Part shown: positions 1,631 to 23,019 of the stretch, piece by piece
Layout of the letters: every line of letters starts with the position of its first letter
Position numbering within the stretch: the stretch's first letter is position 1
Source of the DNA: Akkermansiaceae bacterium
GTDB lineage: Bacteria > Verrucomicrobiota > Verrucomicrobiia > Verrucomicrobiales > Akkermansiaceae
DNA length: 36,003 nt
Assembly: GCA_033722655.1 (NCBI GenBank)
Contig: JAWVYP010000001.1
Span: forward strand, 1-36,003
Reading direction: 5' to 3'
The notes under the pieces: generated by a model
Database searches by the model: none
The model's input: the letters and a program-made list of their open reading frames with translations, nothing else
What the model was told of the DNA's origin: nothing
Made by a program: the position numbers and the translations under genes

Positions 1631-3580
1631 TCAGCTGCAGAAGTGGTGATGGAGGATGTGAAGGCCCAGGAGGTGGTTGAGCAGGGCGTCCTTGCGCACC
1701 AGAGAGGTTGGATCGGTGTCGTCGCGGTAGCCCTGGATGAACTGGTCCACAGCGTCTTGGGAGAGAATGCCACAGCGGCCTACTGCATCGCGGTTGAGGA
1801 AGCCGTCGATGAGTTCATTGACCTTGGCCTTCTTCTTCTCGTCGGTGTGGGCCGGCGGCGCCATGAAGGCGAACTTCTCGCGCTTGTAGAGAATCTCGGG
1901 CAGCACGCCACGCACGGCTTCGCGCAGTACGTATTTCTCGATGTTGCCCTTGATGCGGTAGTGGGGCGGCACCTTGAAGGCAGCCTCCGCGAGGTGGTGG
2001 TCGAGGAATGCCGGACGGGATTCCATCGAGTTGGCCATGTCCACGCGGTCACCACCCCAGTTGAGGATCTGGCCCTCAAGCTGGCACTTGGCCCAGGTGT
2101 ATTGGGCGCGGTCGAGCGGGTGGCGGTTTTCCATCATCTTGCCATCGATGCGTGAGGCGATTTCCTCGATGGGATCGTATTCCAGCAGCTCCTTGTGGTC
2201 CTGGTTGAGCAGGGGCTTCACCAACTCAAGCGTTTCCATCCAAGGCTGAATCCAAGAGGGGGTGAACCCACAGATGGCGTCAAATGCGGGGTGGTGGCGC
2301 TCGTTTTCGGAGAGGATGGCACCCTTGAAGAGGCTGTTGGTTTTTTCGAGCGCCTCCTTGTATTCGGCGCGGATGTGCTCGGGCTCGTGATCGATGCCGT
2401 GCAGGAACATGTCCTTCTTGAAGCCGGGATAGCCCGCAAACAACTCGTCGGAGCCCTCACCGGTGACCACGCAGCGGTAGCCGCAGTCCCAGACGCGCTT
2501 GGACATCAGGTTCTTGGCCACGCCGAGGGTGTTGTAGAAGGTCCGCTCCGCGTGCCAGACGGTGTCGATGTAGTTCTGGCCGTAGAGGTCGTCGGCAGCG
2601 AGGGTGATCATCTCCTGGTCGGCATTCATCGAGACCGCCATCTCGCGGGCAATGCTCGACTCGTCGTAGTCGTCATTGTCGAAGGCAATGGTGAAAGCCT
2701 TGACGGGAGACTGCATGGCACCACTGGCGAGGCCGAGAATGCAGCAGGAGTCGATGCCTCCGGAGAGGTAGCAGCCGACCGGCACATCGGCCTCCAGGCG
2801 CAGGACGACGGCTTCGGTGAGCTGTTCGCGCACCAGATCGACGTGGTATTGCTCGTTCTCGGGCTCGTCGTGACCGCCTTCCTCGGGGAAGTCGAGGTCC
2901 CAGTATTTGATGGTCTCGGTCTCGAGCCGGTCGCCCTTCTTGCGGACACGCATGACATGGCCCGGAGCGAGGGAGTGGATGTTGCGAAACGCACTCATGC
3001 CCGGCGCGATGGTCTGCATCAGCTGGTGCACGGCGGCCTTGGGATCGAGTTCGGCCGGGATATCAGGATGGGCCAGCAGGGCCTTGACCTCGGAACCCCA
3101 GTGAATGGTGTGGTTGTCCTCGATGTGGATGAAAAGCGGACGGATGCCCCAGCGGTCGCGGGCGATCAGCAGTTCCTCCTGCTCGCGGTCGTAGAGAACG
3201 AAGGCGAACTCACCGCGCAGGTGCTGGAGAAAATCGAGGCCCATCTTGCGGTAAAGGCCGATGGCGATTTCGGAGTCCGACTTGGAGGCGAAACGCTGGC
3301 CTTCGGCCATCAGCAGGGAACGGTACTTCTTGAAGTTGTAGAACTCGCCGTTGACGGTGGTCACATAGCGCTTGTCCTGGGAGTGGATGGGTTGCGCGCC
3401 ACCCTCAAGGTCGTTGATGGACAGGCGAGTGTGCCCAAGGGCGATGCCTTGTTCGGTGTCCATCCAGCAGGTCTGGGCGTCAGGGCCGCGGTGGAGGATG
3501 GCCTTGAGCTGATCCATCAGGACGAGTTCGCGGGATTGGTGAAGGGGTCGGGCGGAGAAGGATCCGGCTATGCCACACAT
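1631..3580 (-). CDS. asnB: Asparagine synthase B-family glutamine-dependent amidotransferase (substrate probably not aspartate; see findings)
   Basis: N-terminal MCGIAG (Ntn Cys), HRGPD, LGHTRLSI.D, NGEFYN, PP-loop LSGGIDS, TGEGSDELFAGY, DRVDMANSMESRPAFLD. Confidence 0.9.
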   Translation of the reverse strand: MCGIAGSFSARPLHQSRELVLMDQLKAILHRGPDAQTCWMDTEQGIALGHTRLSINDLEGGAQPIHSQDKRYVTTVNGEFYNFKKYRSLLMAEGQRFASKSDSEIAIGLYRKMGLDFLQHLRGEFAFVLYDREQEELLIARDRWGIRPLFIHIEDNHTIHWGSEVKALLAHPDIPAELDPKAAVHQLMQTIAPGMSAFRNIHSLAPGHVMRVRKKGDRLETETIKYWDLDFPEEGGHDEPENEQYHVDLVREQLTEAVVLRLEADVPVGCYLSGGIDSCCILGLASGAMQSPVKAFTIAFDNDDYDESSIAREMAVSMNADQEMITLAADDLYGQNYIDTVWHAERTFYNTLGVAKNLMSKRVWDCGYRCVVTGEGSDELFAGYPGFKKDMFLHGIDHEPEHIRAEYKEALEKTNSLFKGAILSENERHHPAFDAICGFTPSWIQPWMETLELVKPLLNQDHKELLEYDPIEEIASRIDGKMMENRHPLDRAQYTWAKCQLEGQILNWGGDRVDMANSMESRPAFLDHHLAEAAFKVPPHYRIKGNIEKYVLREAVRGVLPEILYKREKFAFMAPPAHTDEKKKAKVNELIDGFLNRDAVGRCGILSQDAVDQFIQGYRDDTDPTSLVRKDALLNHLLGLHILHHHFCS

Positions 3581-3587
3581 GGTAGTA

Positions 3588-3622
3588 AGTTTAGAGTTAG
3601 GAGTTGGGAATGATGAGTTTGT
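3588..3622. repeat. Degenerate 7-bp tandem repeat downstream of the four-helix-bundle gene
   Basis: AGTTTAG AGTTAGG AGTTGGG AATGATG AGTTTGT, 7-bp periodicity. Confidence 0.55.
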
Positions 3623-3994
3623 CAGTTGGTTATGGCCGAACTGCAGCTCTTTGAGCTTTTTAGAATGGTGACGAAATTGCGATTAGCTGATCCGTTTCGT
3701 TTTCGAGATCTTCGAGCTTGCCGGGGGGAGAAGCTCAGCGTTTCGAATCAGCTCCAACCAGTAGGCGGTTTCGTCGAGTTCCTTGAGGCTGTCTCCAATT
3801 TTAGCTTCAAATTCAGCCTTCGAACGGGATCGGCAGGCCTCTCTGTGATTAGCGCCAACAGATGAACTGGAGCGGAGCATCTGTCTGCCATAGACCCTAG
3901 ATTCTTCAGATCTTGGCAACGCACGGAAAAGCCTGAGACATCGCAGCGAATAGGACATGAGTCGATCGCGCAGTTCTTTGGTTTTCTCGTTCAT
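3622..3994 (-). pseudogene. Four-helix-bundle protein (23S rRNA intervening-sequence protein / Avd-like family), apparently frameshifted near the C-terminus
   Basis: QMLRSSSSVGANHREA.R.RSKAEF..K...LKELDET.YWLELI family pattern. The expected last helix (KLEDLENETDQLIAI / FVTIL) is recovered only by adding one base at the G6 run 3723-3728 and one at the A3 run 3674-3676. The unshifted ORF stops at 3683. Confidence 0.7.
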
Positions 3995-4020
3995 GATTAG
4001 CGAGGGTGATTTCAATTCTA

Positions 4021-4041
4021 ATATCAGAAATCAGATATCTT
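4021..4041. repeat. 7-bp tandem repeat upstream of the four-helix-bundle gene
   Basis: ATATCAG AAATCAG ATATCTT. Confidence 0.5.
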
Positions 4042-5141
4042 CACTTGAAATCCGGGAGGCGGTCGAGGCGACCGAGGATGGCGAGCATCAGGGCTTGGCG
4101 GACGAAGACCGCGCCGTGGGCCTGGGAGAAGTAGAGGTTGTGGGGCGTCTTATCGAGTGAGGTGTCGAGTTCGTCGAGACGGGCCAAGGGGTGGAGAATG
4201 ACGGCCTCTTGCTTGAGCGGGCTATTGGCATCGAGCTTGTAACGGGCATCCAGCGACTTGTAGGAGTCGCCGAGGAAGGCGATGGAGTTCATGTAGATGA
4301 CGTCCAGACGCGGCAGATTCTCCCGGATGTCGTTGGTGACCTCGTATTCGATCTTTGCACGGTCGAGACTGTCGGTGACATCCTTGCCGAAGGGATCGGC
4401 CATTTCGGAAATCACGGTCACCTTGGCGATGTGGTCGCTGAAGAGCAGCGACATCAGCAGGAAGGACTTCACCGCGCGCATCGAACCGGGAGTGCCGAGG
4501 ATGCCCAGTTGCAGTTTCTTGCCGTCCTTTTCGACGGGCATGGCCAGTTGCGGCCGCCATTTGAGGATGGCAAACCAGTCGGCGAGGGCCTGGGTGGGGT
4601 GCTCGCCCGAGCCGTTGCCGGCGTTGATCAGGGGGACCCGGAGGTTTTCGAGGATGCGCTTTGGGGCATCGGTGTCGGTGTGACGCATGACCACGCAGTC
4701 GCAGTAGGCGTTGAACATCTCACCGATGTCCTGCAGCGACTCGCCCTTCTTGGCGCCGGTTACAGAACCGTCGGGAATGGAGATGATCTTGCCACCCAGG
4801 CGATAGACCGCGCTTTCGAAGCTGGTGCGGGTGCGGGTGGAGGCCTCAAAGAAGGCCGTCGTGGTGATCTTGCCGTCCAGGGGGTGATGCGGCCAGATTT
4901 CGACCTGCTCCAGCACTGCGGCGAGTTTGCAGAGGTGAATGACCTGGTTCATGCTGAATTGGCGCGCGAAGAGCACGTTCTGACCGGTCAGTTCGGCGAG
5001 CACATTCAGGTCCGGAGGTTCCGGACTGAACAGGTTGCTGGGTTCCGGGCGGGTGGCTTCGGAGCCCCGGGGCGGCTTGAGGTAGGGTGTAGCCGGATTC
5101 GGATCGAAGGATTCCGGGTTGGGGTCGAATGAGTTTTTCAT
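4041..5141 (-). CDS. Aspartate carbamoyltransferase-like transcarbamylase with an altered acceptor site
   Basis: Carbamoyl-phosphate motifs FFEASTRTR, KKGESL.D, VMRH, HPTQ and HPLAR are present. The PyrB YMTRVQKER motif is replaced by YMNSIAFLG. Confidence 0.85.
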   Translation of the reverse strand: MKNSFDPNPESFDPNPATPYLKPPRGSEATRPEPSNLFSPEPPDLNVLAELTGQNVLFARQFSMNQVIHLCKLAAVLEQVEIWPHHPLDGKITTTAFFEASTRTRTSFESAVYRLGGKIISIPDGSVTGAKKGESLQDIGEMFNAYCDCVVMRHTDTDAPKRILENLRVPLINAGNGSGEHPTQALADWFAILKWRPQLAMPVEKDGKKLQLGILGTPGSMRAVKSFLLMSLLFSDHIAKVTVISEMADPFGKDVTDSLDRAKIEYEVTNDIRENLPRLDVIYMNSIAFLGDSYKSLDARYKLDANSPLKQEAVILHPLARLDELDTSLDKTPHNLYFSQAHGAVFVRQALMLAILGRLDRLPDFK

Positions 5142-5224
5142 GGCTTGTTAAGGAAGGTGGTAAGGAAAAAAAGGGGGGGTAATGGGAAAAAAAGGGGGAA
5201 GCGATCGGTTGGCGCGGCGAAACC

Positions 5225-5344
5225 TTACCAGAGCTCCTTGTTTTTCCAATCCCTGAACAGGAGGACGAGCAAAGTGATCACCCCCAGACCTGTCCAGGTC
5301 AGGGCGACGATGGTGAGTACGAAGAGAAAGGTTGAGGAAAACAT
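5225..5344 (-). CDS. 39-aa single-pass membrane peptide, below the ORF-track cutoff
   Basis: MFSSTFLFVLTIVALTWTGLGVITLLVLLFRDWKNKELW*; ATG 3 nt after the symporter stop; one hydrophobic helix and a charged tail. Confidence 0.7.
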   Translation of the reverse strand: MFSSTFLFVLTIVALTWTGLGVITLLVLLFRDWKNKELW

Positions 5345-5347
5345 GGT

Positions 5348-6766
5348 TCAGGCTTTGCGATCAATGGGTGTGGGAGAAATCCAGCGGGCGGCGATGGTGA
5401 TGACCATGGAAACCGAAGCGCCGATGAGGGAGGCCGTAAACCAGCCCAAGAGGTAATACGCCAGGACGCCAACCGTGCAGGCCACGCCAATTCCGACCAA
5501 TACCAACTTGCGGTTGATTTTCTGCCAATACAGGCCGGCAATGATGGGCCAGATCAGAGATGCGACCAGAGGCCCGGAAAGGTAGAGCACCTTGACGATC
5601 GGCCAGCGGGGCAGCGACAGCGACCAGACCAGCAAGCCAACTGCGATGGTCACGATGCCGGCGATCTTGTGGAAGTTGCCTTCTTGGATCTCCTTGCCGA
5701 GGACGACCTTGGTCATGTCGCTGAGAATCAGGTCTGAGGTTGCGGCCAACAGGGAGTCGATGGAGGAGGCGATGGAGCAGAAAAGCACCACCAGGATCAG
5801 CAAGCCAGCGATCATGCCGAAGCCGGCCTGCAACAGGACGTGTTCGGCGACCACCGGGCCAGTCTGGTTGACATCGGTGATGTTGACCCCCAGGGGAGTG
5901 GCGGCGATGGCGGCAAATCCGGCTGCCACCGGGATGGGCAACCAGAGGAGACCCGCCAGGAAAAAGGCCTTGGGCGCGATGTCCTTGCGGATGGCAAAGG
6001 CACGGGACCACCAGACGTTGTTGTGGAAGACCTCACCGAAGCCGAAGAGCATCAGGTTGAAGAGGGAGAGCAGGGCGACGGGCATCCCGTAATGGAGCAA
6101 GGTGGGCTGGGTTTCGACGATGCTTTGGTGGGCCTTGGGCACGTCAATCTGGTTGAGCACCAGGACGCCAATCAGCAAGATGCCGCCAAGAATGATGAGG
6201 CTCTGCACAAAGTCGGTTCCCACCACCGCATAGAGGCCACCGAAGAGGGTGTACAGGACACAGACCACCAGGATCAGTGTCATGCCCTGCCAGTAGGGGA
6301 TATCCGCCAAGGCCTTGAGCAACTCACCACCGGCGATCGACATGGTGACCAGCCAGGCGATCGAATAGATCAGGGTGATGATCATGAAGAGAACCCAACC
6401 AGCCTTGCCAAAACGGTGATGAAAAAAATCCCCAGCCGTCATTCCCTTGGGCAGGATGCTGCGGATGCGCAGGCAAAGCGGGGCAAAGAGCAGCAAACCG
6501 AATGCAGCTGCGGAATATCCCAACATTCCCCAGATTCCCTGGGTGAAGGCCAATTTCGGAGCCACCATGACCGTGTTGGAGGTGATCCAGGTGGCCATGG
6601 CAGTCGCGGCACCCAAGGCGAGGCCGATGTTGCGGCCAGCAAGCATGAAGCCCTCGGAGTCCTGGGACTTGCGTCCCCACCAGATGCCGAGCCCCACCCA
6701 GATGATGCCCAAGGTGATGACCACGGACCAGCCGACGGGTGCTGAAATGGAGACAGCAAGAATCAT
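5348..6766 (-). CDS. Sodium:solute symporter (SSS family, urea transporter DUR3-like)
   Basis: About 13 hydrophobic segments; F.LAGRN.G, ATWITSNT, YTLFGGLYAVVGTDFVQ, ASSIDSLL.A SSS-type motifs; start overlaps the upstream stop (ATGA). Confidence 0.88.
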   Translation of the reverse strand: MILAVSISAPVGWSVVITLGIIWVGLGIWWGRKSQDSEGFMLAGRNIGLALGAATAMATWITSNTVMVAPKLAFTQGIWGMLGYSAAAFGLLLFAPLCLRIRSILPKGMTAGDFFHHRFGKAGWVLFMIITLIYSIAWLVTMSIAGGELLKALADIPYWQGMTLILVVCVLYTLFGGLYAVVGTDFVQSLIILGGILLIGVLVLNQIDVPKAHQSIVETQPTLLHYGMPVALLSLFNLMLFGFGEVFHNNVWWSRAFAIRKDIAPKAFFLAGLLWLPIPVAAGFAAIAATPLGVNITDVNQTGPVVAEHVLLQAGFGMIAGLLILVVLFCSIASSIDSLLAATSDLILSDMTKVVLGKEIQEGNFHKIAGIVTIAVGLLVWSLSLPRWPIVKVLYLSGPLVASLIWPIIAGLYWQKINRKLVLVGIGVACTVGVLAYYLLGWFTASLIGASVSMVITIAARWISPTPIDRKA

Positions 6767-7410
6767 GCGTCCAGATTGCGGTGTTTGTGGGAAAGATGAC
6801 CATGGGCGATGGCACTGACCGTAATCAGCACCACCAGTCCTCCGAGAATGAGCAACAAGCGGATCTGGCTCCTTGGCATGTATTTGACTTCGGCGACGAG
6901 CACCTCAGACCAGGGGCCGGGCTCTCCGTCCACGTCCTGGATGCGCACGCGAAACCTGTGGGTGCCCTCAGCAAGCCCCGTGACCACACTGGATTGGTCC
7001 ATGCCTTCGTAGCGTCTTTCAAAGGTATCCGGCGATGAGGGCTGGGTCGCCTGAAGTAGGAAAGGACCATTGTGTTTGGTGGTCCAGCGCAGGTCGATCA
7101 CGCCTTCCCTGGAGTGGTAAATGCCATCCTCTCCCGGCTTGGGTAGATCCTCGCTTTTCAGGCTCAGCGTCTGAGCTCCCAGAGTGGCAACGCTGGTTAT
7201 GAACACAGCAAAGACCAGACCGGTGAGAGCCGATCGGCAAAACTGGACGCTGGAACGGAAATTCCTGATGACGAAGTCGTGTGTGGAGGCCGCGCACGAA
7301 GGCTTACAGGTGCGACAACTTGGCGCTAGCTTTGCCAGTGAAGCCCATGGATTGCAAATTCTTTCTGGATTGAGTCCAGATCCGCCTTTTACTGGTAGCC
7401 ATGCAGACAA
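6763..7410 (-). CDS. Membrane-anchored protein with a fibronectin type III-like domain; true start probably downstream of 7410 (about 7200-7270)
   Basis: Signal-like stretch, LRW...Y.G...VTGL.EG...FRVR...GPWS FN3-like pattern, C-terminal TM helix; coupled to the symporter. The first ~50 codons of the called ORF overlap the divergent promoter region. Confidence 0.65.
   Translation of the reverse strand: MSAWLPVKGGSGLNPERICNPWASLAKLAPSCRTCKPSCAASTHDFVIRNFRSSVQFCRSALTGLVFAVFITSVATLGAQTLSLKSEDLPKPGEDGIYHSREGVIDLRWTTKHNGPFLLQATQPSSPDTFERRYEGMDQSSVVTGLAEGTHRFRVRIQDVDGEPGPWSEVLVAEVKYMPRSQIRLLLILGGLVVLITVSAIAHGHLSHKHRNLDA
7320..7337. promoter_or_regulatory. Sigma54 (-24/-12)-type motif readable on both strands, between the divergent arms
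   Basis: Plus: TTGGCGCTAGCTTTGCC. Minus: TGGCAAAGCTAGCGCC. Both have GG-N10-GC. Confidence 0.5.
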
Positions 7411-8651
7411 CGGAAGACGTGAGCATCTCCATCGATCGATTGAAGGAGGACTTGCGGGAACTCTCCGAAATCGGACGCAGCGAGGACGGGGGAGTTTACC
7501 GCATGGCCTTCACCAAGGCAGACATGGAGGGCAAGGACTGGCTGGAAAGGAAAATGCAGGATGCTGGACTCGCAACCCGACGAGACGGCGCCTGCAATGT
7601 CATCGGCCGCATCGAGGGCAAGGATCCCGATGCTCCGGCTCTCGTCATCGGATCCCACATCGACACCGTGCCCTGCGCCGGCATCTTGGACGGAACCCTC
7701 GGTGTGCTGACCGGGCTGGAATGCCTTCGCTCGCTCATCGAAACCGGCGCCAATCCTGCCTGTCCGGTCGAGTTGATCGCCTTTTCCGATGAAGAAGGCC
7801 GCTTTGGCGGCATGTTCGGCTCCCAAGCCTATGCCGGCATGATTACCCCGGAAACCATCCACCAAGCCAGCGACCTCGATGGCGTGAAACTGGCCGATGC
7901 CATGGAGGAACATGGGCTCGATCCCTGGAAGGCCCTGGAAGCGCAACAAAACCCCGAGGCCGTCAGTCAATACCTCGAGCTGCACATCGAGCAGGGCCCC
8001 GTGCTCTCGGAATCCCAGGAACAGGTCGGCATTGTCGAAGCCATCACCGGCCTCTTCAAGTGGTCGGTCATCCTCAACGGCGAGCCCAATCACGCCGGTA
8101 CAACGCCCATGCCCATGCGCAAGGACGCCTTCATGGGGGTCGCCGACTTTGCCCACGAATTGCCGCGCATCATCGACGAGAACGGCTCTGACGTGTCCCG
8201 CGCCACCATCGGCCGGGTCGAATTGCTTCCGGGCTCACCCAATACCGTGCCGGGCGACGCCAAGTTCTCCATCGATGTCCGCGACACCGACGAGGAAATC
8301 CTGCGCGAACTCGAGACCGCCATCCGCAAGGCCTTGGGAGCCATCGCCCGCCGTCGCCAACTGGCCTTCACCTACGAGTTGGAAAGCTGGATCAAGCCGG
8401 TGCTCTGCCATCCGCCACTGGTGAATGAACTGGAGAAGGCCGCAAAGGGCGCCGATGTCCGCTACCGGCGCATGCCCTCCGGAGCCGCCCACGATGCCCA
8501 GATCATGGCCAATGTCTGCCCGGTGGCCATGGTTTTCGTACCTTCCAAGGACGGTCGCTCCCATTCTCCCGCGGAGTGGACTGCCATGGATGACATCGAG
8601 GCAGGGGCTGTGGTGTTCCAGCGCGCCATCAAGTCACTTGCATTCAACTGA
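7401..8651 (+). CDS. Zn-dependent N-carbamoyl-L-amino-acid amidohydrolase (M20 hydantoinase/carbamoylase family, AmaB/AllC-like)
   Basis: GSHIDTVP, DEEGRFG, YLELHIEQGP, HAGTTPM, SGAAHDA, SHSPAE. Confidence 0.9.
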   Translation: MQTTEDVSISIDRLKEDLRELSEIGRSEDGGVYRMAFTKADMEGKDWLERKMQDAGLATRRDGACNVIGRIEGKDPDAPALVIGSHIDTVPCAGILDGTLGVLTGLECLRSLIETGANPACPVELIAFSDEEGRFGGMFGSQAYAGMITPETIHQASDLDGVKLADAMEEHGLDPWKALEAQQNPEAVSQYLELHIEQGPVLSESQEQVGIVEAITGLFKWSVILNGEPNHAGTTPMPMRKDAFMGVADFAHELPRIIDENGSDVSRATIGRVELLPGSPNTVPGDAKFSIDVRDTDEEILRELETAIRKALGAIARRRQLAFTYELESWIKPVLCHPPLVNELEKAAKGADVRYRRMPSGAAHDAQIMANVCPVAMVFVPSKDGRSHSPAEWTAMDDIEAGAVVFQRAIKSLAFN

Positions 8652-8661
8652 ATTCCCCTTC

Positions 8662-9441
8662 ATGACCCCCCCAGTGAGCAATACCAAGCCAGCCAGCCCG
8701 GGAAAACCCACCAGCAAGGATCCCCTGCGTGAGAATTATCGCGAGGCCTTCGTCACCAACCCGCGGCGCAAGGAGCATCTCGCCGAGGGCAAGATCGCAC
8801 TCATGTGCATTGACGTCCAATACCTCGATGCCGCCGATGGCTGGGGGCTTTTCAGTGATCCGGAAAAGAGTGGAGTTACCGAGGAGGGACGCCGCTACTA
8901 CTTCAACCGCCTCAAGCAAACCGTGCTGCCCGGCATGCGCAAGCTGCAGGACGCTTTCCGCGAAAACATGCTCGAGGTCATCCACTGCCGCATCTGTGCG
9001 TTGACCAAGGATGGCCGCGACCGCAGTCCTGGCCACCGTCGTCTCAACCTGTTGGCCGCCCCCGACAGCAAGGAGGCCGAATTCCTTGAGGAAGTGGCAC
9101 CCAAGGGCGACGAAATTGTCATCAACAAGACTGCCAGCGGGGTGTTCTCAAGCACCAACATCCACTACGTGCTCAGCAATATGGGCATCCGCTCGCTCTA
9201 TCTCTGCGGTGTCTACACCAATGAGTGCGTCGAGACCACCGCACGCGATGCCTGCGATCTGGGCTACTTCGTCACCGTGATCGACAATGCCTGCGCCACG
9301 GTGACCCAACAGCTTCACGACGCTTCCTTGGCGACACTGCGCGACCGCTATGCACGCATCTGCACGGTGGAAGAGACCCTGTCCGAACTGGAAACCCTCA
9401 GCGTCTGCTCGACGACGGGCATCATCACAGTGATGGATTGA
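8662..9441 (+). CDS. Isochorismatase-family cysteine hydrolase (amidase)
   Basis: Catalytic triad D (IDVQ), K (INKT), C (TNECVETTARDA.DLGY); ATG 8662 is 10 nt after the upstream stop. Confidence 0.88.
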   Translation: MTPPVSNTKPASPGKPTSKDPLRENYREAFVTNPRRKEHLAEGKIALMCIDVQYLDAADGWGLFSDPEKSGVTEEGRRYYFNRLKQTVLPGMRKLQDAFRENMLEVIHCRICALTKDGRDRSPGHRRLNLLAAPDSKEAEFLEEVAPKGDEIVINKTASGVFSSTNIHYVLSNMGIRSLYLCGVYTNECVETTARDACDLGYFVTVIDNACATVTQQLHDASLATLRDRYARICTVEETLSELETLSVCSTTGIITVMD

Positions 9442-10413: not shown

Positions 10414-13400
10414 TCAGGCCGGTTTGGGCGTGCTGGCAGCCTCGTGGATTTCCTCGGCGGCTTCCAGTTCGGCGTGTGTCTTGGCAATGACGCGCACCAT
10501 CTTGCGCGCGGTGTCTTCCCAGTTTTCGAGCAGGGTCTTGGCTTGCGCACTGTCGGTCTCGGCAGCGTGACGCTCGATCAGCGCCTTCATGGTCTCGACG
10601 TCTTGGCTGCGCTTGACGGGAAGGGCGACGACCATCTCGGAGTTGACGCGCGAGTAGAACTTGCCGTCGACGTCATAGACGTAGGCGGTGCCGCCGGACA
10701 TGCCGGCACCGAAATTGCGGCCGGTCTTGCCGAGGATGACGATGGTGCCATTGGTCATGTATTCGCAGCCGTGATCACCGACTCCCTCCACGACAGCCGT
10801 GGAGCCGGAGTTGCGGACCGCGAAGCGCTCGCCGGCGCGGCCGTTGGCGAAGAGGAAACCACCCGTTGCTCCGTAGAGGCAGGTATTGCCGCAGATGGTG
10901 TTGGTGGCCGCCTCGAAACCGGCATTGTTGGGCACCTTGAGAATGATCTCGCCTCCAGCCATGCCCTTGCCGACATAGTCATTGGCTTCGCCGGTGAGGG
11001 TCAGGCGCACCCCTTGGACCAGGAAACAGCCCAAGGATTGGCCAGCCGTGCCGGTCAAGTTGAGATGGATGGTGGGTTGGTGGAGACCGTGATTGCCATG
11101 GATTTCAGCGATGCGTCCAGACAGGCGGGTGCCGATGTTGCGGTCCGTGTTGACGACTTCGTAATCGAGGGTTACCGCCGGACGATCGGGCATCAGGCGG
11201 ATGGCTTCGTGCATTTGTTCGGTCACGGAACCTTCGCCGTAGTGGACCTCGGGAATCTCGCCTTCGTCGAGCATGGCCTTCTGCAGGTCGGCGAGGATTT
11301 GCAGGTCGAGCGCCTGCTTGGCAATGCCATCATTGCGTTCCTGCATGTGGATGCGCGAAATCTGCTCGGGAGCGATGCCGAGCTGGGTGGAGAGGTCTGG
11401 CGCCACGTCCTTGAGCACCGGTCCGAGATCCAGGGTATTGGCCTTGGGATGATCGGGCACCTTGCGCTGGCGCAGGAACTCGGGGCGACCGATGAGCTCG
11501 TCGAGCGTGCGCGCTCCGAGCGCCGCCATGTGTCGACGGGCCTCTTCGGCCACCGCAGTGAAGTAGTTGATCACCATTTCCGGTGTGCCCTTGAACTTGG
11601 CGCGGAATTTGGGATCGGTCGTGGCAACACCCACCGGGCAGGTATTGAGGTGGCATTTGCGGACGTAGACGCAACCCATGGCAATCATGGCCGTGGTGCC
11701 GAAGTTGAATTGCTCGGCACCCAGGATGGCGGCAACGACCACATCGCGACCGTTGCGGATGCCGCCGTCGGTGCGCAGGATCACACGGTCGCGAAGGTTG
11801 TTGATCATCAGGGTCTGCTGGACCTCGGAAAGGCCAAGCTCCCAGGGACTGCCCGCGTGTGTGGTGGAGGAAAGCGGGGAGGCACCGGTGCCACCGTCGT
11901 GACCGGAGATCAGGATGTTGTCGGCGGAGGCCTTGGCGACGCCAGCCGCGACGGTGCCCACACCGGTTTCGGCCACCAGCTTCACAGTCACCCGGGCCCG
12001 GGGATTGACTTCCTTGAGGTCGTGGATGAGTTGGGCGAGATCCTCGATGGAGTAGATGTCGTGGTGGGGCGGGGGAGAAATCAGCTGCACGCCGGGCTGG
12101 GTGTTGCGCAGGCGCGCAATCAGCGGATTGACCTTGTGGCCGGGAAGCTGTCCACCCTCACCGGGCTTCGCGCCTTGGGCCATCTTGATTTCGAGCTCGG
12201 AGGCATTGACCAGGTAGTGTGCGGAAACGCCGAAGCGGCCCGAGGCGATCTGCTTGATGTAGGAGCGGGCAAAGTCGCCGTTGGGGTAGGGGGCGTAGCG
12301 CTTGGCGTCTTCACCTCCTTCGCCGGAGTCGGATTTGCCGCCAATGCGGTTCATCGCAATGGCAAGGGTCTCGTGGGCCTCGGGTGAGAGCGCACCCAGG
12401 GACATGGCCGCCGTGGTGAAGCGCATGCGGATGTTCTCCATCGCTTCGACCTCCTCGAGCGGCACGGGGCCGTTGGGAGAGGGGGCGAACTCGACCAGAT
12501 CCTTGATCGCCACCGGATGGGTCTCGAGCGAGACGCGGACATACTCCTCGTAGTCCTCGGGCTTGCCTGACTTCACGTAGGTGTGGAAGTTTTTAATGAC
12601 CTCGGTGGTGTAGACGTGGCGCTCGCCGGTCTTGCGGTAGCGATTGTAGCCGGGATCTCCCAGATCGAGGGTCTCGCCCTCGGCCACCTCGGGTTCGTAG
12701 GCAGCGCGGTGGCGGATGATGGATTCGTCGGCAATCTCGGTGAAGCCGATGCCGCCGATGCGCGACTGCACCCCGGTAAAGGAGAAGTCGACGACTTCCT
12801 TGCCGATGCCGATGGCCTCGAAAATCTGTGCGCCCTGATAGGAGTTGAGCACCGAGATGCCCATCTTGGACATGATCTTGAGCAGGCCCTTCTCCAAGGC
12901 TTTGCGGTAGTTTTCCATGGCCTTGCGCGGGCTGAGCTCATGACTCTCGGCGAGTTGACGCACGGTGGCATAGCCGAGGTAGGGGCAGACGGCGGTCGCC
13001 CCGAAGCCGAAGCAGGTGGCAATCTGGTGGACGTCGCGGACTTCCCCGGTTTCGACCACGATCGAGGCGCGCATGCGGCGGCGAATGCGGTTGAGATGGT
13101 GATGAACCGTGCCGATGGCCAGCAGGGCGGGAACGGGAATGCGTTCGGCGGAGGTGGCGCGGTCGCTGAGCACGAGGATGCTGTAGCCCTTTTCCACCGC
13201 CTGTTCGGCCTCCTGACAAAGTTGGTCGAGGCGCTCCTTCAGTCCCTTTGCTCCAGCCTCAGCAGGCCAGGTGATGTCGAGGATGGTGGAATCGAAGCCG
13301 TGCTCCTCGAGGTGTTGCAGGCGCTCCAGTTCGTGTTCGTAGAGGATGGCGCTCTTGAGGGCGACCGTGTGGCAGTGGTCGGGCGTCTCATCGAGCAGGT

Positions 13401-15063
13401 TGCGCTCGGGGCCGATACCGGCAGCCAAGGACATGACCGCCCACTCGCGGATGGGGTCGATGGGCGGGTTGGTGACCTGGGCGAAGAGCTGCTTGAAGTA
13501 GGTGAAGAGCAGGCGCGGATAGCTGGAGAGAACCGCGAGCGGGATGTCGTCACCCATGGAAAACACGGCTTCCTGCGCACCCTTGAGCATGGGCGGAAAG
13601 ACCATGTCGAGTTCCTCCTTGGAAATGCCATTGGCGACCTGGCGACGCGACAGGTCGAGGGCCTCGAAGTCGACATCGGGCTCGTGGGCATCGGGAGAAA
13701 CGAATTCGCGCAACTGCAGCTGTTTCTCGTCCAGCCAGCGACCGTAGGGTTTCTGGCGGGCGAGCTCCTCCTTGATCTCGCGATCGTATTTGAATTCGCC
13801 GGTGGCCGTATTGGCCGAAATCATCTGGCCGGGACCGAGGCGTCCCTTGCGAATGACGCGCGCATCATCGATGATCACGGCACCGGCTTCCGAACCGATG
13901 TAGAGCAGGCCGTCGGAGGTCAACTTGTAGCGTGAGGGCCGCAGACCGTTGCGATCCAGGGAAGCGCATAGCTTGGTGCCATCGGTGAAGACCAGGCCGG
14001 CGGGACCATCCCAGGGCTCGGAGAAGGAGCGGATGAACTGGTAGAAGGCGCGCACTTCCTCCGAAATGCTCTCGTCGTTGCGGTAGGCCGGGGGAATGAG
14101 CATGCACATGGCGTGCTCGAGCGAGCGACCGGAGAGCACCAGAAGTTCGAGTGCGTGGTCGAGCGAGGCCGAGTCCGACTCGCCCTCGCGCATCAGATCG
14201 CGAACCAGGTCGATATCCTCGCCCCAGACGGGAGACTCAAAGAACTCCTCGCGGGAAGTCATCCAGTTGCGATTGCCTTCCACGGTGTTGATCTCGCCAT
14301 TGTGGCACATCATGCGGAAGGGTTGACCCAGCGGCCAGGCGGGGAAGGTGTTGGTGGAGAAGCGCTGGTGGTAGAGCGCGATGGCCACCTGGTAGTCGGG
14401 GCTCTGGAAATCGAGATAGAATCGGCGCAGGGCGTCGGGCATGGCCAGTGCCTTGTAGGAAATCAGACGCGCGGAGAAGGTGGGGAGGTAGATTCCGGGG
14501 ATGTTGGCCGTCTCGCGCTCGATTTCGCGGCGGCAGAGGTAGAGCTGGCGCTCAAAATCGTCGCCGGATAGACCCTCGGGCTTTTTCATTAGCAGATGGA
14601 GAATGTCGGGGCGACTCTTGCGCGCGATGTCGCCGAGGGCGTCGATGTCGACGGGCACTTCGCGCCAGCCAATCTTGGGGATGGAGCGCTTGGAGATGAT
14701 GTTCTCAGCGATCGTTTGAACCTCCTGCTGGATGGTCTCGTTGTTTTGCGGAACAAAGAAAACACCCACAGCTATATCTCCTTCTTCGTCAATGGCTTCT
14801 CCTAATTTTTCCGCTTCTTTTTGAAACAGGGGAAAGGGCAGCTGGGTGAGCACTCCAGCACCGTCACCGGTCTTCATGTCGGCGTCGACGGCACCTCGAT
14901 GGGTCATGCAGCAGACCGACTCCAGGGCGAGATCGAGAATCTCCCGGCGGCGCTTGCCGTTGATGTCCGCGATGGCGCCCATGCCGCAGTTGTCGTGCTC
15001 GTGACGCAGATCGTGAAGGGAGCCGGGAACGCGCGGTGTCAGCGGGTGGTAGGGAGAATTCAT
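10414..15063 (-). CDS. gltB: Glutamate synthase large subunit
   Basis: HDNCGMG catalytic Cys, HQRFSTNTFP, EPWDGPA, DRNGLRP, FAQVTNPPIDP, AQGAKPGEGGQLPG.KV, [3Fe-4S] motif CVYVRKCHLNTC, C-terminal GXGXG beta-helix. Confidence 0.97.
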   Translation of the reverse strand: MNSPYHPLTPRVPGSLHDLRHEHDNCGMGAIADINGKRRREILDLALESVCCMTHRGAVDADMKTGDGAGVLTQLPFPLFQKEAEKLGEAIDEEGDIAVGVFFVPQNNETIQQEVQTIAENIISKRSIPKIGWREVPVDIDALGDIARKSRPDILHLLMKKPEGLSGDDFERQLYLCRREIERETANIPGIYLPTFSARLISYKALAMPDALRRFYLDFQSPDYQVAIALYHQRFSTNTFPAWPLGQPFRMMCHNGEINTVEGNRNWMTSREEFFESPVWGEDIDLVRDLMREGESDSASLDHALELLVLSGRSLEHAMCMLIPPAYRNDESISEEVRAFYQFIRSFSEPWDGPAGLVFTDGTKLCASLDRNGLRPSRYKLTSDGLLYIGSEAGAVIIDDARVIRKGRLGPGQMISANTATGEFKYDREIKEELARQKPYGRWLDEKQLQLREFVSPDAHEPDVDFEALDLSRRQVANGISKEELDMVFPPMLKGAQEAVFSMGDDIPLAVLSSYPRLLFTYFKQLFAQVTNPPIDPIREWAVMSLAAGIGPERNLLDETPDHCHTVALKSAILYEHELERLQHLEEHGFDSTILDITWPAEAGAKGLKERLDQLCQEAEQAVEKGYSILVLSDRATSAERIPVPALLAIGTVHHHLNRIRRRMRASIVVETGEVRDVHQIATCFGFGATAVCPYLGYATVRQLAESHELSPRKAMENYRKALEKGLLKIMSKMGISVLNSYQGAQIFEAIGIGKEVVDFSFTGVQSRIGGIGFTEIADESIIRHRAAYEPEVAEGETLDLGDPGYNRYRKTGERHVYTTEVIKNFHTYVKSGKPEDYEEYVRVSLETHPVAIKDLVEFAPSPNGPVPLEEVEAMENIRMRFTTAAMSLGALSPEAHETLAIAMNRIGGKSDSGEGGEDAKRYAPYPNGDFARSYIKQIASGRFGVSAHYLVNASELEIKMAQGAKPGEGGQLPGHKVNPLIARLRNTQPGVQLISPPPHHDIYSIEDLAQLIHDLKEVNPRARVTVKLVAETGVGTVAAGVAKASADNILISGHDGGTGASPLSSTTHAGSPWELGLSEVQQTLMINNLRDRVILRTDGGIRNGRDVVVAAILGAEQFNFGTTAMIAMGCVYVRKCHLNTCPVGVATTDPKFRAKFKGTPEMVINYFTAVAEEARRHMAALGARTLDELIGRPEFLRQRKVPDHPKANTLDLGPVLKDVAPDLSTQLGIAPEQISRIHMQERNDGIAKQALDLQILADLQKAMLDEGEIPEVHYGEGSVTEQMHEAIRLMPDRPAVTLDYEVVNTDRNIGTRLSGRIAEIHGNHGLHQPTIHLNLTGTAGQSLGCFLVQGVRLTLTGEANDYVGKGMAGGEIILKVPNNAGFEAATNTICGNTCLYGATGGFLFANGRAGERFAVRNSGSTAVVEGVGDHGCEYMTNGTIVILGKTGRNFGAGMSGGTAYVYDVDGKFYSRVNSEMVVALPVKRSQDVETMKALIERHAAETDSAQAKTLLENWEDTARKMVRVIAKTHAELEAAEEIHEAASTPKPA

Positions 15064-20257: not shown

Positions 20258-22948
20258 TCAGGGTCTGGGCAGGGGGTCGTTGGCGAAGTGGTGGTATTGG
20301 CGCCGCAGCTCCGTATCGACAGGCGCATGGAAGATGGCCTTGTTCGACCATCTCAGGGCTTCTTCACGGTTGCCCTTGGCAAAATGGATTTCAGCCATGG
20401 TGTCGAGGTAGGCAGCCTGATCCGGGGACAGTTCCAAGGCCCGTTTCTGGATGCCCTCTGCTGCCTTGAGTTCCCGCTGGGCGCGTGATGCAAACCAGCC
20501 TGCCGCGTTGCAAGTGTTGGCCGAGTCTGGGAAGAGTTCGATGACCCGGGTCAACTTTTCCCAGGATGCATCGAACCACTGGTTGTGCTGTTCCTGCAAT
20601 CCGGCAACCCGCAGGACCGGGAAAAAGAAGTCGGCCAGCACCCCATCCGTCATATGGTTCTCATGGCACTTTGCGAGAATGGCGATGGCTGTCTTGCGGT
20701 CCTTCTTGAGGATGCTCAGGGCGCGGTAGACATCCGCCTTGAGACGCAGTTTCATTTCGGCATAGGGAACGTCGTTCTCGTAGTAGGAATTTTCGATGGA
20801 CTCACAGGCTGCGAGTTCGTTGAGCGCTGCCACCCGACGCCAATGGCTGGGCTCCATCAGTATGCTCTCGGCATAGGCCAGCGTGATGGCCGAGAAGTCA
20901 CTGCTGCCGGGATCCGCGGTCAGGGCGGCCCGCTCCCACCATTCACGGCTTCGCGCATGATCGCCGCCAAAGGCATAGGCCATGGCGATCTGCATGGCCT
21001 TCCGGCTGTCTCCAAGGCAAAGCAGATCAGCCATGTGGTCGTGATGCCTAGCCTCTTCAAGGCGACCGGCCCGGCGCATCGAGGTGGCGGCGTATGCGTG
21101 GATCTCTGCGTGGACGGATCCACCTTCGCCTTGTTCCACCTCATCAATCCGCTCGACCAGCAATTCGCTGACCGCATCCCAGTCATCGCGCGCCGAAAGG
21201 TGGGCGATCTGCTGGCGCCAGATGTAGTTGCTGCTGTAGTCTTCGGGGATCAACGGCCAGACCTTGCGGCTCAGTTCGACATCACCCGTATTGAAGGCCA
21301 GATTGATCAGGCGCATCAGCACCGATTGTTTTTCCTGCCCCTCTTCCAGGTCCTGGTAATGTTTCCACGCAAGATCCAGCCACCTCTGGCGCTGCCTGCC
21401 CTGATTGGGCACGTGGCGCAGGATAACCATCACGCTCTCGAGCCGTTCTGCTCGGGTGGTTTCGGGGTCCAGTTCTGCCAGCAGTTTCCACCATTCGTGG
21501 CTGTCGTCATCCCCGGACCAGAAGGTGTCGATCAGCAGGGACCAACGCTTGTCATCTTCTCCGGCCCAGTCGGAGGCGATCCGGGTGGCCAGCAATGGCG
21601 AGGGCAGGTAACTTCCGCTCTGGTGGTAGAGCCGCATCATGAAATCGAGGAAGGCAGCCCGGTCCTTGTCGCCAAAGGCAATGGTCGGTTCCCGGAAGCA
21701 TTCCAAGGCGAGATCGTGAAGGCCGCGGTTTTCCAGGAACCCCGCCATCAGACACAGGCTTAGGGCCTGCTTGGAATCCTCGAGATCGCGGAAGCCATCC
21801 TCGCCGAGATTGTCGAACTGAAGGCTGACCCATTCCTTCGTGCAGGGCTTCTGCGGCGTGTGAGCCAAAAGCTCGAGGACCTTGTCCACCTCTTCCTGTA
21901 TCTGGTAATAGAAGGCGGCCTTGATGGGCGCATCCTTGACCAGTGATTGCTCTGCAGTGCGGTGCTCGCCCAGCATGAAGAGGGCGCTGCGGGCCATGTG
22001 CCGATAGCGGGAGCTGCGCTTCTCCTGAATGCTGACCAGCTTGTCCAGGTCACTGAAGTCCATCGAATTGCTGTTCCAGCGGTCCGAGGCGAGTCGCGCG
22101 TAGATGCTCAGAGTGTGGTTTCTCGACCTGCGGTCTTCCTCCTCCCAGTTGGACGCGCGGAGCTGGAGCCAGGGAAGCGGGTCGCCGTTGAGCGCTGCCA
22201 GGCCCGCGTGAAGGAAGGGCTGCTTGTCCGCATCGGTTTCCGCCAGAGCCTGCTCGACCTTTCCCGCGGCCCGGTAGAGCGCAATGCGCCATTGGGCCGC
22301 CCTGTCTCCTTCAAGCTTGGAGGCCTTCTCAAGTTCGGCGTCCAGGGTGCCATGAGTCCGGTGGAATTCAGCCAGGGCGAGCATGGAGAGCGGGCCGTCG
22401 GGAGCGAGTTCGAGCATCTCGAGCGCCTCCTCGGGTTTCTCCCGGGTCAACAATTCCCGGGCCGCGTAAACGGCGATGCGCTGCAGGGTCGATTGGTGAT
22501 GTCTGCGCACGCCTTCATGGGTTTCTCCCTGATAGAGCATGAGCATCTGCTTCCATGCCTTGCGGCTCTGCAGTTCTGCCAGCAACTTGCTTTTCTCGCT
22601 GGGTCTCGCCTCTGAATAGCGCTCGACGATGGCCAGCAATTCGGGATCGGAGTCCGGGAACACCCCCATTTCGATCTTGCGCACCAATTCGCGGGCGCGC
22701 GTGGCCTGCTCCGGGTCTTCGGAGTCGGCAAGCTTCCTGAGCTTCGGGAGGGCCGCATTCCCCAGTTTCCACAGTTCATGTGTGGCCTTTTCGCGGACAC
22801 TGAAGTGAGGGTCGGCCAAGTCTTCGGTCCACTGGTTCAGCTTGGGATCCGTCTGGTTGTTGAGTGGCGCTGCCGATGCCGCCCAAACAAGAGCCAAGAC
22901 ACTCAGGAGGCTCGTGAGGAGAATTGACTTTTTCTGGCTGGGAAACAT
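20258..22948 (-). CDS. Large exported HEAT/TPR-repeat protein
   Basis: Signal peptide; HEAT-like LADPHFSVREKAT.ELWKLG; C-terminal TPR ALELSPDQAAYLDTMAEIHFAKG.REEAL.W; start probably ATG 22948. Confidence 0.8.
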   Translation of the reverse strand: MFPSQKKSILLTSLLSVLALVWAASAAPLNNQTDPKLNQWTEDLADPHFSVREKATHELWKLGNAALPKLRKLADSEDPEQATRARELVRKIEMGVFPDSDPELLAIVERYSEARPSEKSKLLAELQSRKAWKQMLMLYQGETHEGVRRHHQSTLQRIAVYAARELLTREKPEEALEMLELAPDGPLSMLALAEFHRTHGTLDAELEKASKLEGDRAAQWRIALYRAAGKVEQALAETDADKQPFLHAGLAALNGDPLPWLQLRASNWEEEDRRSRNHTLSIYARLASDRWNSNSMDFSDLDKLVSIQEKRSSRYRHMARSALFMLGEHRTAEQSLVKDAPIKAAFYYQIQEEVDKVLELLAHTPQKPCTKEWVSLQFDNLGEDGFRDLEDSKQALSLCLMAGFLENRGLHDLALECFREPTIAFGDKDRAAFLDFMMRLYHQSGSYLPSPLLATRIASDWAGEDDKRWSLLIDTFWSGDDDSHEWWKLLAELDPETTRAERLESVMVILRHVPNQGRQRQRWLDLAWKHYQDLEEGQEKQSVLMRLINLAFNTGDVELSRKVWPLIPEDYSSNYIWRQQIAHLSARDDWDAVSELLVERIDEVEQGEGGSVHAEIHAYAATSMRRAGRLEEARHHDHMADLLCLGDSRKAMQIAMAYAFGGDHARSREWWERAALTADPGSSDFSAITLAYAESILMEPSHWRRVAALNELAACESIENSYYENDVPYAEMKLRLKADVYRALSILKKDRKTAIAILAKCHENHMTDGVLADFFFPVLRVAGLQEQHNQWFDASWEKLTRVIELFPDSANTCNAAGWFASRAQRELKAAEGIQKRALELSPDQAAYLDTMAEIHFAKGNREEALRWSNKAIFHAPVDTELRRQYHHFANDPLPRP

Positions 22949-23019
22949 GTCTGGTGAACACTGTGGCGCAATTTTGGCCACTGCGCAATCTCCGGCTTGG
23001 GGATCTGGGCCAGCTTGCC

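Follow-up and report, generated by a model that had tools for sequence, protein, structure and literature searches.

A conserved transcarbamylase-amidotransferase cassette from an Akkermansiaceae bacterium, misannotated as pyrB and asnB, is a candidate system for an N-carbamoyl amino-acid amide

Analysis of a 36,003-nucleotide stretch of DNA from an Akkermansiaceae bacterium (assembly GCA_033722655.1, contig JAWVYP010000001.1, positions 1 to 36,003; the whole stretch is termed here the window) has drawn attention to a cassette of seven genes that lie in two divergent arms. On the minus strand the order is an FN3-domain transmembrane (FN3-TM) protein, a symporter, a 39-amino-acid peptide, a transcarbamylase and an AsnB-type amidotransferase, and on the plus strand an M20 carbamoylase is followed by an isochorismatase-family cysteine hydrolase. 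Databases name the transcarbamylase and the amidotransferase aspartate carbamoyltransferase and asparagine synthase, respectively, just as the initial annotation of this DNA had warned in suggesting that such labels would mask the function of the locus. Our analysis establishes that this is a conserved, misannotated module that is neither PyrB nor a member of the N-acetylglutaminylglutamine amide (NAGGN) osmolyte system. The assembly that holds the window (as contig C1) is 81% complete, and among named organisms those nearest to it are species of Haloferula and Luteolibacter, with ~82-87% protein identity. The features of the locus are as follows.

1631..3580, minus strand: AsnB-type glutamine amidotransferase of 649 amino acids (TIGR01536), predicted to amidate the carboxylate of an N-carbamoyl amino acid
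3683..4015, minus strand: inserted four-helix-bundle gene (23S rRNA intervening-sequence-protein-like, IVP-like; PF05635, TIGR02436), frameshifted near its 3' end
4041..5141, minus strand: pseudo-aspartate transcarbamylase (pseudo-ATCase) of 366 amino acids, HPLA/SIA type, with an ATCase fold and a predicted non-aspartate L-amino acid acceptor
5225..5344, minus strand: hydrophobic microprotein of 39 amino acids with a C-terminal D-x6-W, a putative symporter accessory subunit from its position and conservation
5348..6766, minus strand: DUR3-type sodium:solute symporter (SSS) of 472 amino acids (PF00474) that is predicted to import a ureido compound bigger than urea
6763..7410 (listed open reading frame), minus strand: FN3 domain plus C-terminal helix, a predicted membrane anchor, from an AlphaFold model and Foldseek
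7401..8651, plus strand: M20 hydantoinase/carbamoylase (TIGR01879), relative of L-carbamoylase 3n5f
8662..9441, plus strand: isochorismatase-family cysteine hydrolase of 259 amino acids (PF00857), a predicted amidase that would start the breakdown

All seven open reading frames (ORFs) of the initial annotation were recovered intact and in place by ORF and family scans. The FN3-TM stop and the symporter start share 4 bp (ATGA), the 39-residue peptide begins 3 bases past the symporter end, and the cysteine hydrolase, whose best start is 8662, begins 10 bases past the carbamoylase end. Longer starts at 8425 for the cysteine hydrolase and at 7410 for the FN3-TM protein were discarded because they overlap the carbamoylase; the true FN3-TM start lies inside the listed ORF.

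Conservation of the cassette was assessed with a scan of species-representative genomes that gave 110 confirmed relatives, the best 80 of which (from Verrucomicrobiota and Bacteroidota) were kept. Symporter, transcarbamylase and AsnB enzyme occur together in all 80 loci, each time with the 39-residue peptide between symporter and transcarbamylase. The FN3-TM gene is present in 74; the other six cover no upstream DNA, as the symporter match starts ~25 bases or less from the edge of the locus. The control was a metagenome scan in which gammaproteobacterial-type members served as seeds; it returned 6 family loci and 74 others, mostly ATCases of the RxQ type. Neither a symporter homologue nor an AsnB homologue occurs in any of these 74, many of whose contigs are short, versus five of the six family loci with both, the sixth contig being only 1.5 kb long. 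The conserved synteny anticipated by the initial annotation is therefore borne out, and the gene association is not due to chance.

Structure and fold comparisons assign the transcarbamylase an ATCase fold, and its scores lie below the curated ATCase cut-offs of both TIGR00670 (175 vs 237) and NF002032 (172 vs 263). It retains the E. coli PyrB residues S52, T53, R54, T55, K84, R105, H134, Q137 and R167, and its carbamoyl-phosphate site comprises S101-T104, K132, R153, H181 and Q184 in its own numbering. Three positions are changed relative to E. coli PyrB: R229 is S286, Q231 is A288 and P268 is A320. The window enzyme thus carries S286-I-A288 (SIA) and HPLA in place of the PyrB signatures R229-x-Q231 and HP[LG]P. 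In PyrB, R167 binds the alpha-carboxylate, and R229 and Q231 bind the side chain of aspartate; with both of the latter lost, the enzyme is not PyrB. These features are stable across the family, with R222, S286 and A320 found at 80 of 80 loci and A288 at 78. The RxQ motif is also what defines an ATCase in Table 1 of Barba et al. 2013 (PMC4016543). From these residues we infer an active carbamoyltransferase that would use an L-amino acid other than aspartate and act before amidation. A canonical pyrB, the presence of which had been proposed as a check on this idea, adjoins pyrC elsewhere in the genome, which also carries argF, and each of four named carriers has three carbamoyltransferase genes. 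In a quick tree the HPLA family sits on its own long branch apart from the RxQ ATCases, with a Shimodaira-Hasegawa-like approximate likelihood ratio test (SH-aLRT) support of 99. Nested within it is a clade of ~355-residue transcarbamylase-like proteins (SH-aLRT 100; P0139, P0143, P0148, P0150, P0158, P0159, P0168, P0169, P0197, P0209, P0211 and P0214) that have lost STRT or K84 and kept R167, and that are possibly catalytically dead paralogues.

The AsnB-type enzyme shows a comparable departure from its namesake. Only the broad model TIGR01536 is passed (396 bits, cut-off 267), with scores under the cut-offs of the AsnB model NF006949 (261 vs 499) and the AsnO model TIGR03104 (269 vs 570). 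Catalytic features appear complete, as C2, R52, N77, G78, D102, the SGGIDS ATP loop, E375, D378 and K569 are invariant in 24 of 24 aligned amidotransferases. In asparagine synthetase B the TTIR motif (E. coli) supplies an Arg needed for formation of beta-aspartyl-AMP; at this position the window enzyme has Gly353 (NTLG). The protein is probably not an asparagine synthetase and would amidate a carboxylate other than that of aspartate. Furthermore, gatB is present in all five carrier genomes scanned, so that an enzyme for free asparagine may not be needed.

The divergent arm encodes two hydrolases whose features fit removal of the same two groups. The M20 enzyme scores 396 bits with TIGR01879 (cut-off 204) and falls under the cut-off of the ErtE N-carbamyl-glutamate model (382 vs 520), with L-carbamoylase 3n5f as its best solved relative (E 1e-87). 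Residues H86, D97, E132, H195 and R294 occur in 33 of 33 orthologues. R294 aligns with R286 of 3n5f, which we take to be carboxylate-binding; with this Arg retained, an amide would have to be removed before the carbamoylase acts. The cysteine hydrolase has relatives that include biuret hydrolase and RutB, and its Asp-Lys-Cys triad (D51, K156, C189) is kept in 31 of 31 sequences. Both hydrolases are found in 31 of the 80 related loci (25 of the 54 with full flanks), in divergent or downstream position, and the cysteine hydrolase always accompanies the carbamoylase (31/31). The breakdown arm is absent from the other 49 (29 of the 54 with full flanks), and in five genomes lacking it near the cassette, orthologues were found elsewhere in only one, which has the pair. 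Thus the genes of the degradation arm proposed in the initial annotation are present in the window as described, but they are an optional part of the system.

The symporter is closest among solved structures to the DUR3 urea transporters (E 3e-21 vs 1e-6 for the next family). When its pocket positions are counted by hand from an alignment with DUR3, it retains W93, T98, Y117 and W338 of the AtDUR3 urea pocket (residue list from PMC11840088, accessible part) as W60, T65, Y84 and W275. In contrast, W95, Q124 and N305 are replaced by the small residues T62, G90 and G242, and the proton-linked D312 and E402 of DUR3 are not retained. AtDUR3 Y461 is Tyr in the window symporter and Phe in 72 of the 80 loci. 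These replacements suggest a pocket wider than that of DUR3, and the substrate would be a ureido compound larger than urea; urease is found in only 2 of 5 carriers. Also unlike DUR3, the window symporter is encoded with two putative accessory membrane proteins. The 39-residue peptide, for which Pfam and NCBIfam scans gave no family match, has L25, D32 and W39 invariant among 41 aligned sequences and, judging from gene coupling, is likely a symporter accessory subunit. On the same basis the FN3-TM protein is a putative symporter partner. It has no Pfam match, and its AlphaFold model (predicted local distance difference test, pLDDT, 92) shows a beta-sandwich plus a helix at 100-134 that retrieves mostly fn3 domains as top Foldseek matches.

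Taken together, these features can be read as a short pathway. The pseudo-ATCase would use carbamoyl phosphate to carbamoylate an L-amino acid at its alpha-amine. This acceptor would have its alpha-carboxylate free (R167 kept) and lack an aspartate side chain (R229/Q231 lost), with Gln or Glu fitting best. The AsnB paralogue would then amidate the carboxylate at the expense of ATP and glutamine, thereby masking the last charge. The DUR3-like symporter, with its FN3-TM and 39-residue partners, would recapture the ureido compound. Where the optional arm is present, the cysteine hydrolase would remove the amide and free the carboxylate that the L-carbamoylase needs, and the carbamoylase would finally release the amino acid, CO2 and ammonia. 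The synthetic direction is favoured by the genomic complement, as a carbamate kinase gene (arcC) scoring over the cut-off is found in none of the five carrier genomes and the small chain of carbamoyl-phosphate synthetase is found in four, being missing only in the 81%-complete assembly of the window itself. Synthesis also fits better than uptake with the Prochlorococcus carriers, which score 0 for the symporter in the available part of PMC10119275. We therefore regard synthesis of a carbamoyl amide by the cassette as probable. An osmotic role is modestly favoured, and the full proposal, in which the cassette makes, recaptures and breaks down an N-carbamoyl amino-acid amide as an osmolyte with the glutamine amide as lead candidate, is favoured by the barest of leads. 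That the product is specifically N-carbamoyl-glutamine amide falls a little short of an even chance.

A precedent for this logic is the NAGGN osmolyte system (AsnO plus Ngg), in which the amine is capped and the carboxylate is amidated by the AsnB paralogue AsnO to give a neutral glutamine-based solute, with a hydrolase encoded alongside. The window cassette would likewise cap an amine and amidate an acid in a comparable way, and it too travels with a hydrolase. It differs in that the cap would be a carbamoyl group from an ATCase paralogue placed on a single amino acid, in the low AsnO-model score given above, and in that no Ngg gene was recognised among the window's neighbours in Pfam and NCBIfam scans.

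The gene block itself is already in print (Barba 2013; Doré 2023), without the proposed function in the parts of those papers available to us. Barba et al. 2013 (PMC4016543) define a marine pseudo-ATCase block and, in the available part, assign no reaction to its subgroup 3. The window resembles that subgroup in having a Na+ symporter on one side, an asparagine-type enzyme on the other, an adjacent carbamoylase and a separate pyrB; its enzyme has HPLA and SIA, both of which are among the motifs that Table 1 of that paper lists. It differs in that the neighbour is called a putative asparaginase there, and the peptide, FN3-TM protein, cysteine hydrolase and MarR regulator (see below) go unmentioned in the part available. 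Table 1 lists HPLA with AIA, AIS or SIA under subgroup 1 and HSLP and VxP under subgroup 3. However, symporter-AsnB loci in our scans have HPLA with AIA, AIS and SIA, and named proteins from Synechococcus have HPLA with AIA, so the rows for subgroups 1 and 3 look swapped. A marine Synechococcus island contains ureP/DUR3, a small membrane protein, pyrB2, asnB, pydC and an Ntn (N-terminal nucleophile) aminohydrolase (PMC10119275, available part). The asnB-pyrB2-pydC cluster of Doré et al. 2023 shares with the window the core order DUR3-like symporter, small membrane protein, pyrB2, asnB and carbamoylase. It differs in being read as an alternative pyrimidine route and in having an Ntn hydrolase instead of a cysteine hydrolase. 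Occupation of the neighbouring slot by the Ntn enzyme suggests a replaceable amidase. Finally, the ureidoglycine carbamoyltransferase Rxyl_2847 is, in the accessible part of PMC4016543, the only assayed pseudo-ATCase and shows that these paralogues accept other amines. Unlike the cassette enzyme it is catabolic and lies beside carbamate kinase and allantoinase genes. Neither of these was recognised as a recurrent neighbour of the 80 loci, with the allantoinase search confined to these neighbourhoods.

N-carbamoyl-glutamine amide is a known compound of Ectothiorhodospira marismortui (PMC1224877, PMC7824335; seen in part). No gene assignment for it was found in the literature searched, where coverage of subscription papers is slight. 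The transcarbamylase and amidotransferase thus provide a two-gene candidate for a compatible solute that was described in 1991.

Evidence on the osmotic role comes from a MarR gene that precedes 27 of the 80 loci. Its best plasmid match (45%) heads a kamA-SSS-ablB operon of the N-acetyl-beta-lysine osmolyte type on plasmid pFA9 of Fulvitalea axinellae (Bacteroidota; L172, 6001-10831), and the next match (33%) lies beside proVWX and ectA. The occurrence of relatives of this MarR at osmolyte operons supports an osmotic role, for which regulation of the EctR/CosR type would be a candidate. The SSS beside ablB in Fulvitalea shares just 25% identity with the symporter of the window and was rejected as a member of the same subfamily. 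Within the window's own genus the Mrp antiporter occurs in 6 of 12 carriers vs 27 of 158 non-carriers (Fisher p 0.013), a figure from related genomes that are not independent and from one of three salt proxies.

Several observations weigh against a glutamine-derived osmolyte. The active-site residues rule out aspartate yet do not pick glutamine. Of the four MarR plasmid regions examined, two have osmolyte genes, one has none and one is unannotated, and no MarR gene was found beside the window's cassette or in its genome. The other two salt proxies give no support, with nqrA in 0 of 13 carriers and BCCT in 2 of 12 vs 7 of 158 (p 0.12). Carriers include Chitinophaga, Sphingobacterium and Anseongella, which we take to be soil-type genera. 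No protein named from Ectothiorhodospira appears among the 120 matches listed in each of three homologue searches, most rows of which are nameless. The picocyanobacterial cluster tracks warm, N- and P-depleted water (PMC10119275, available part). Rhodopirellula baltica carries the enzyme as RB13301 (PMC4016543), and the available account of its 1H/13C nuclear magnetic resonance (NMR) analysis over a salinity and nitrogen series reports only glutamate, sucrose, trehalose and mannosylglucosylglycerate (MGG) (PMC3694870). RB13301 was also not found in the supplementary stress-response gene lists of PMC2754498, as far as these were available. Its neighbours RB13294 and RB13300 are salt-up there, and RB13294 is up with heat and cold as well; RB13294 as the MarR and RB13300 as the peptide region is a candidate mapping that fits by size and spacing only. 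The make-and-recycle chemistry of the initial annotation gains from the conserved synteny, the separate pyrB and the non-aspartate acceptor site. Its osmolyte assignment gains from the osmolyte-type MarR context and is set back by the R. baltica pool, for which such a compound is not reported.

Much of this contrary evidence suits an alternative that we consider unlikely while giving it real weight. It keeps the same make-and-break chemistry and makes the product a nitrogen store, a minor conditional metabolite or a derivative of another amino acid (Asn, Ser, Ala) that is no bulk osmolyte. The R. baltica NMR pool, the association of the picocyanobacterial cluster with N- and P-poor water and the two null salt proxies are all consistent with this alternative; a glutamine product would also hold four nitrogens, and a gene named by its sequence as glutamate synthase lies nearby at 10414-15063. 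However, the associated MarR has its relatives at osmolyte operons, and the breakdown arm that a store would need is missing from 49 of 80 loci and replaced by orthologues elsewhere in just one of five such genomes. A scavenging role is improbable in our estimation: here the DUR3-like carrier would import an environmental ureido compound and the transcarbamylase would run in reverse by phosphorolysis, like Rxyl_2847. The nearness of the symporter to urea transporters, the catabolic nature of the sole assayed pseudo-ATCase and the placement of HPLA/SIA in subgroup 1, the ureidoglycine carbamoyltransferase group, in Table 1 of PMC4016543 (available part) would all agree with this. They are countered by the lack of an arcC hit over cut-off in the five carriers, by Prochlorococcus carriers without an importer (PMC10119275, available part), and by a constant partner that is an ATP-consuming amidotransferase when the hydrolases are optional. 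Moreover, the HPLA motifs with AIA, AIS or SIA are those of symporter-AsnB loci and named Synechococcus proteins, which is the subgroup 3 context, so that the table labels again look swapped.

About as improbable is that the two enzymes supply a building block for some other product, be it a small natural product that is secreted, a signalling molecule or an envelope component that carries an amide, and that the FN3-TM protein acts at the cell surface. AsnB-family enzymes do amidate many acceptors, the closest solved structure to the window amidotransferase is the hydroxyamidotransferase 7ylz, an extracytoplasmic FN3-TM protein is unusual in an osmolyte operon, and Actinophytocola carries a distant HPLA enzyme. 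Yet no other recurrent biosynthetic or glycan gene was recognised near the 80 loci when neighbour clusters were read by eye, and the pair of hydrolases is what a simple modification in two reversible steps would call for. Least probable is that these are an ordinary pyrB and asnB, or the alternative picocyanobacterial pyrimidine route of Doré et al. 2023, despite the database names, the TIGR01536 score and the lack of a second Asn_synthase gene in this assembly. Loss of R229 and Q231, with S286 in every locus, argues against PyrB and against the pyrimidine route, as do the canonical pyrB-pyrC pair elsewhere in the genome and the absence of a dihydroorotase among recurrent neighbours. Replacement of the TTIR Arg and the presence of gatB argue against an ordinary asnB. 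Among 171 genomes from the genus just 13 carry the transcarbamylase, which also counts against this reading.

As this last count indicates, distribution of the cassette is rare and patchy. Even draws of genomes gave the transcarbamylase family in 2 of 201 from the window's phylum (one being G000) and in 1 of 301 around G240, which is G240 itself. Named members elsewhere come from Synechococcus, Thiothrix, Pseudoalteromonas, Aliidiomarina and Ca. Thiodiazotropha, and Haloferula sargassicola and Reichenbachiella agariperforans are among the cultured carriers. In a homologue search, 2004 of the 8000 proteins scored reach E<=1e-60, and true ATCases may be among them. No member of the transcarbamylase family turned up in plasmid searches; the best AsnB plasmid matches are at 34-40%, and one that was examined belongs to an unrelated acyl carrier protein (ACP)/acyl-CoA ligase cluster. 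If synthesis of an N-carbamoyl amino-acid amide is correct, then the pyrB label on thousands of proteins would conceal a new transcarbamylase specificity. A new interpretation would also follow for the pyrB2-asnB-pydC island of Synechococcus and the urea symporter annotated in it, with a bearing on marine dissolved organic nitrogen. On the most far-reaching version of the proposal, which we put at somewhat less than an even chance, what looked like an oddity of a single species would become a four-nitrogen marine solute that is widespread, since the cassette occurs in Verrucomicrobiota, Bacteroidota, Gammaproteobacteria and marine Synechococcus. In the same-genus genome G677 (C5:57895-58943) the transcarbamylase is broken into two parts that lie in different frames.

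The window also contains features outside this argument. The four-helix-bundle gene at 3683-4015 on the minus strand, between transcarbamylase and asnB, was overlooked in the initial annotation. It continues in other frames past its frameshift, in a stretch presumably corresponding to the typical C-terminus of its family. Being present in 1 of 80 related loci, it is no part of the system. The DNA run that best matches the locus is a tidal-flat metagenome whose contigs cover it piecewise with few differences, none spanning all of it; this run may be the source of the window and so does not constitute independent support. A contig of run X1, which may be the window's source, matches the four-helix-bundle stretch gap-free. 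No RNA dataset with this locus was listed. A promoter scan gave 0 sigma-70-like sites vs 2.5 expected, and a terminator scan gave 3 vs 6.5 expected. The glutamate synthase large-subunit gene, on the minus strand 1 kb from the cassette, is no recurrent neighbour, and a 907-residue ORF at 20258-22981 on the minus strand has no Pfam match. Upstream of the cassette, 10 of the 80 loci encode a 140-residue protein without an NCBIfam match (e.g. L078, 5541-5963). In some Bacteroidota loci the transcarbamylase-asnB gap holds a 970-residue protein whose N-terminal part is of unknown kind and whose M20 carbamoylase-like region is split (L083, 9052-11964), and inserts resembling it occur in L046 and L048.

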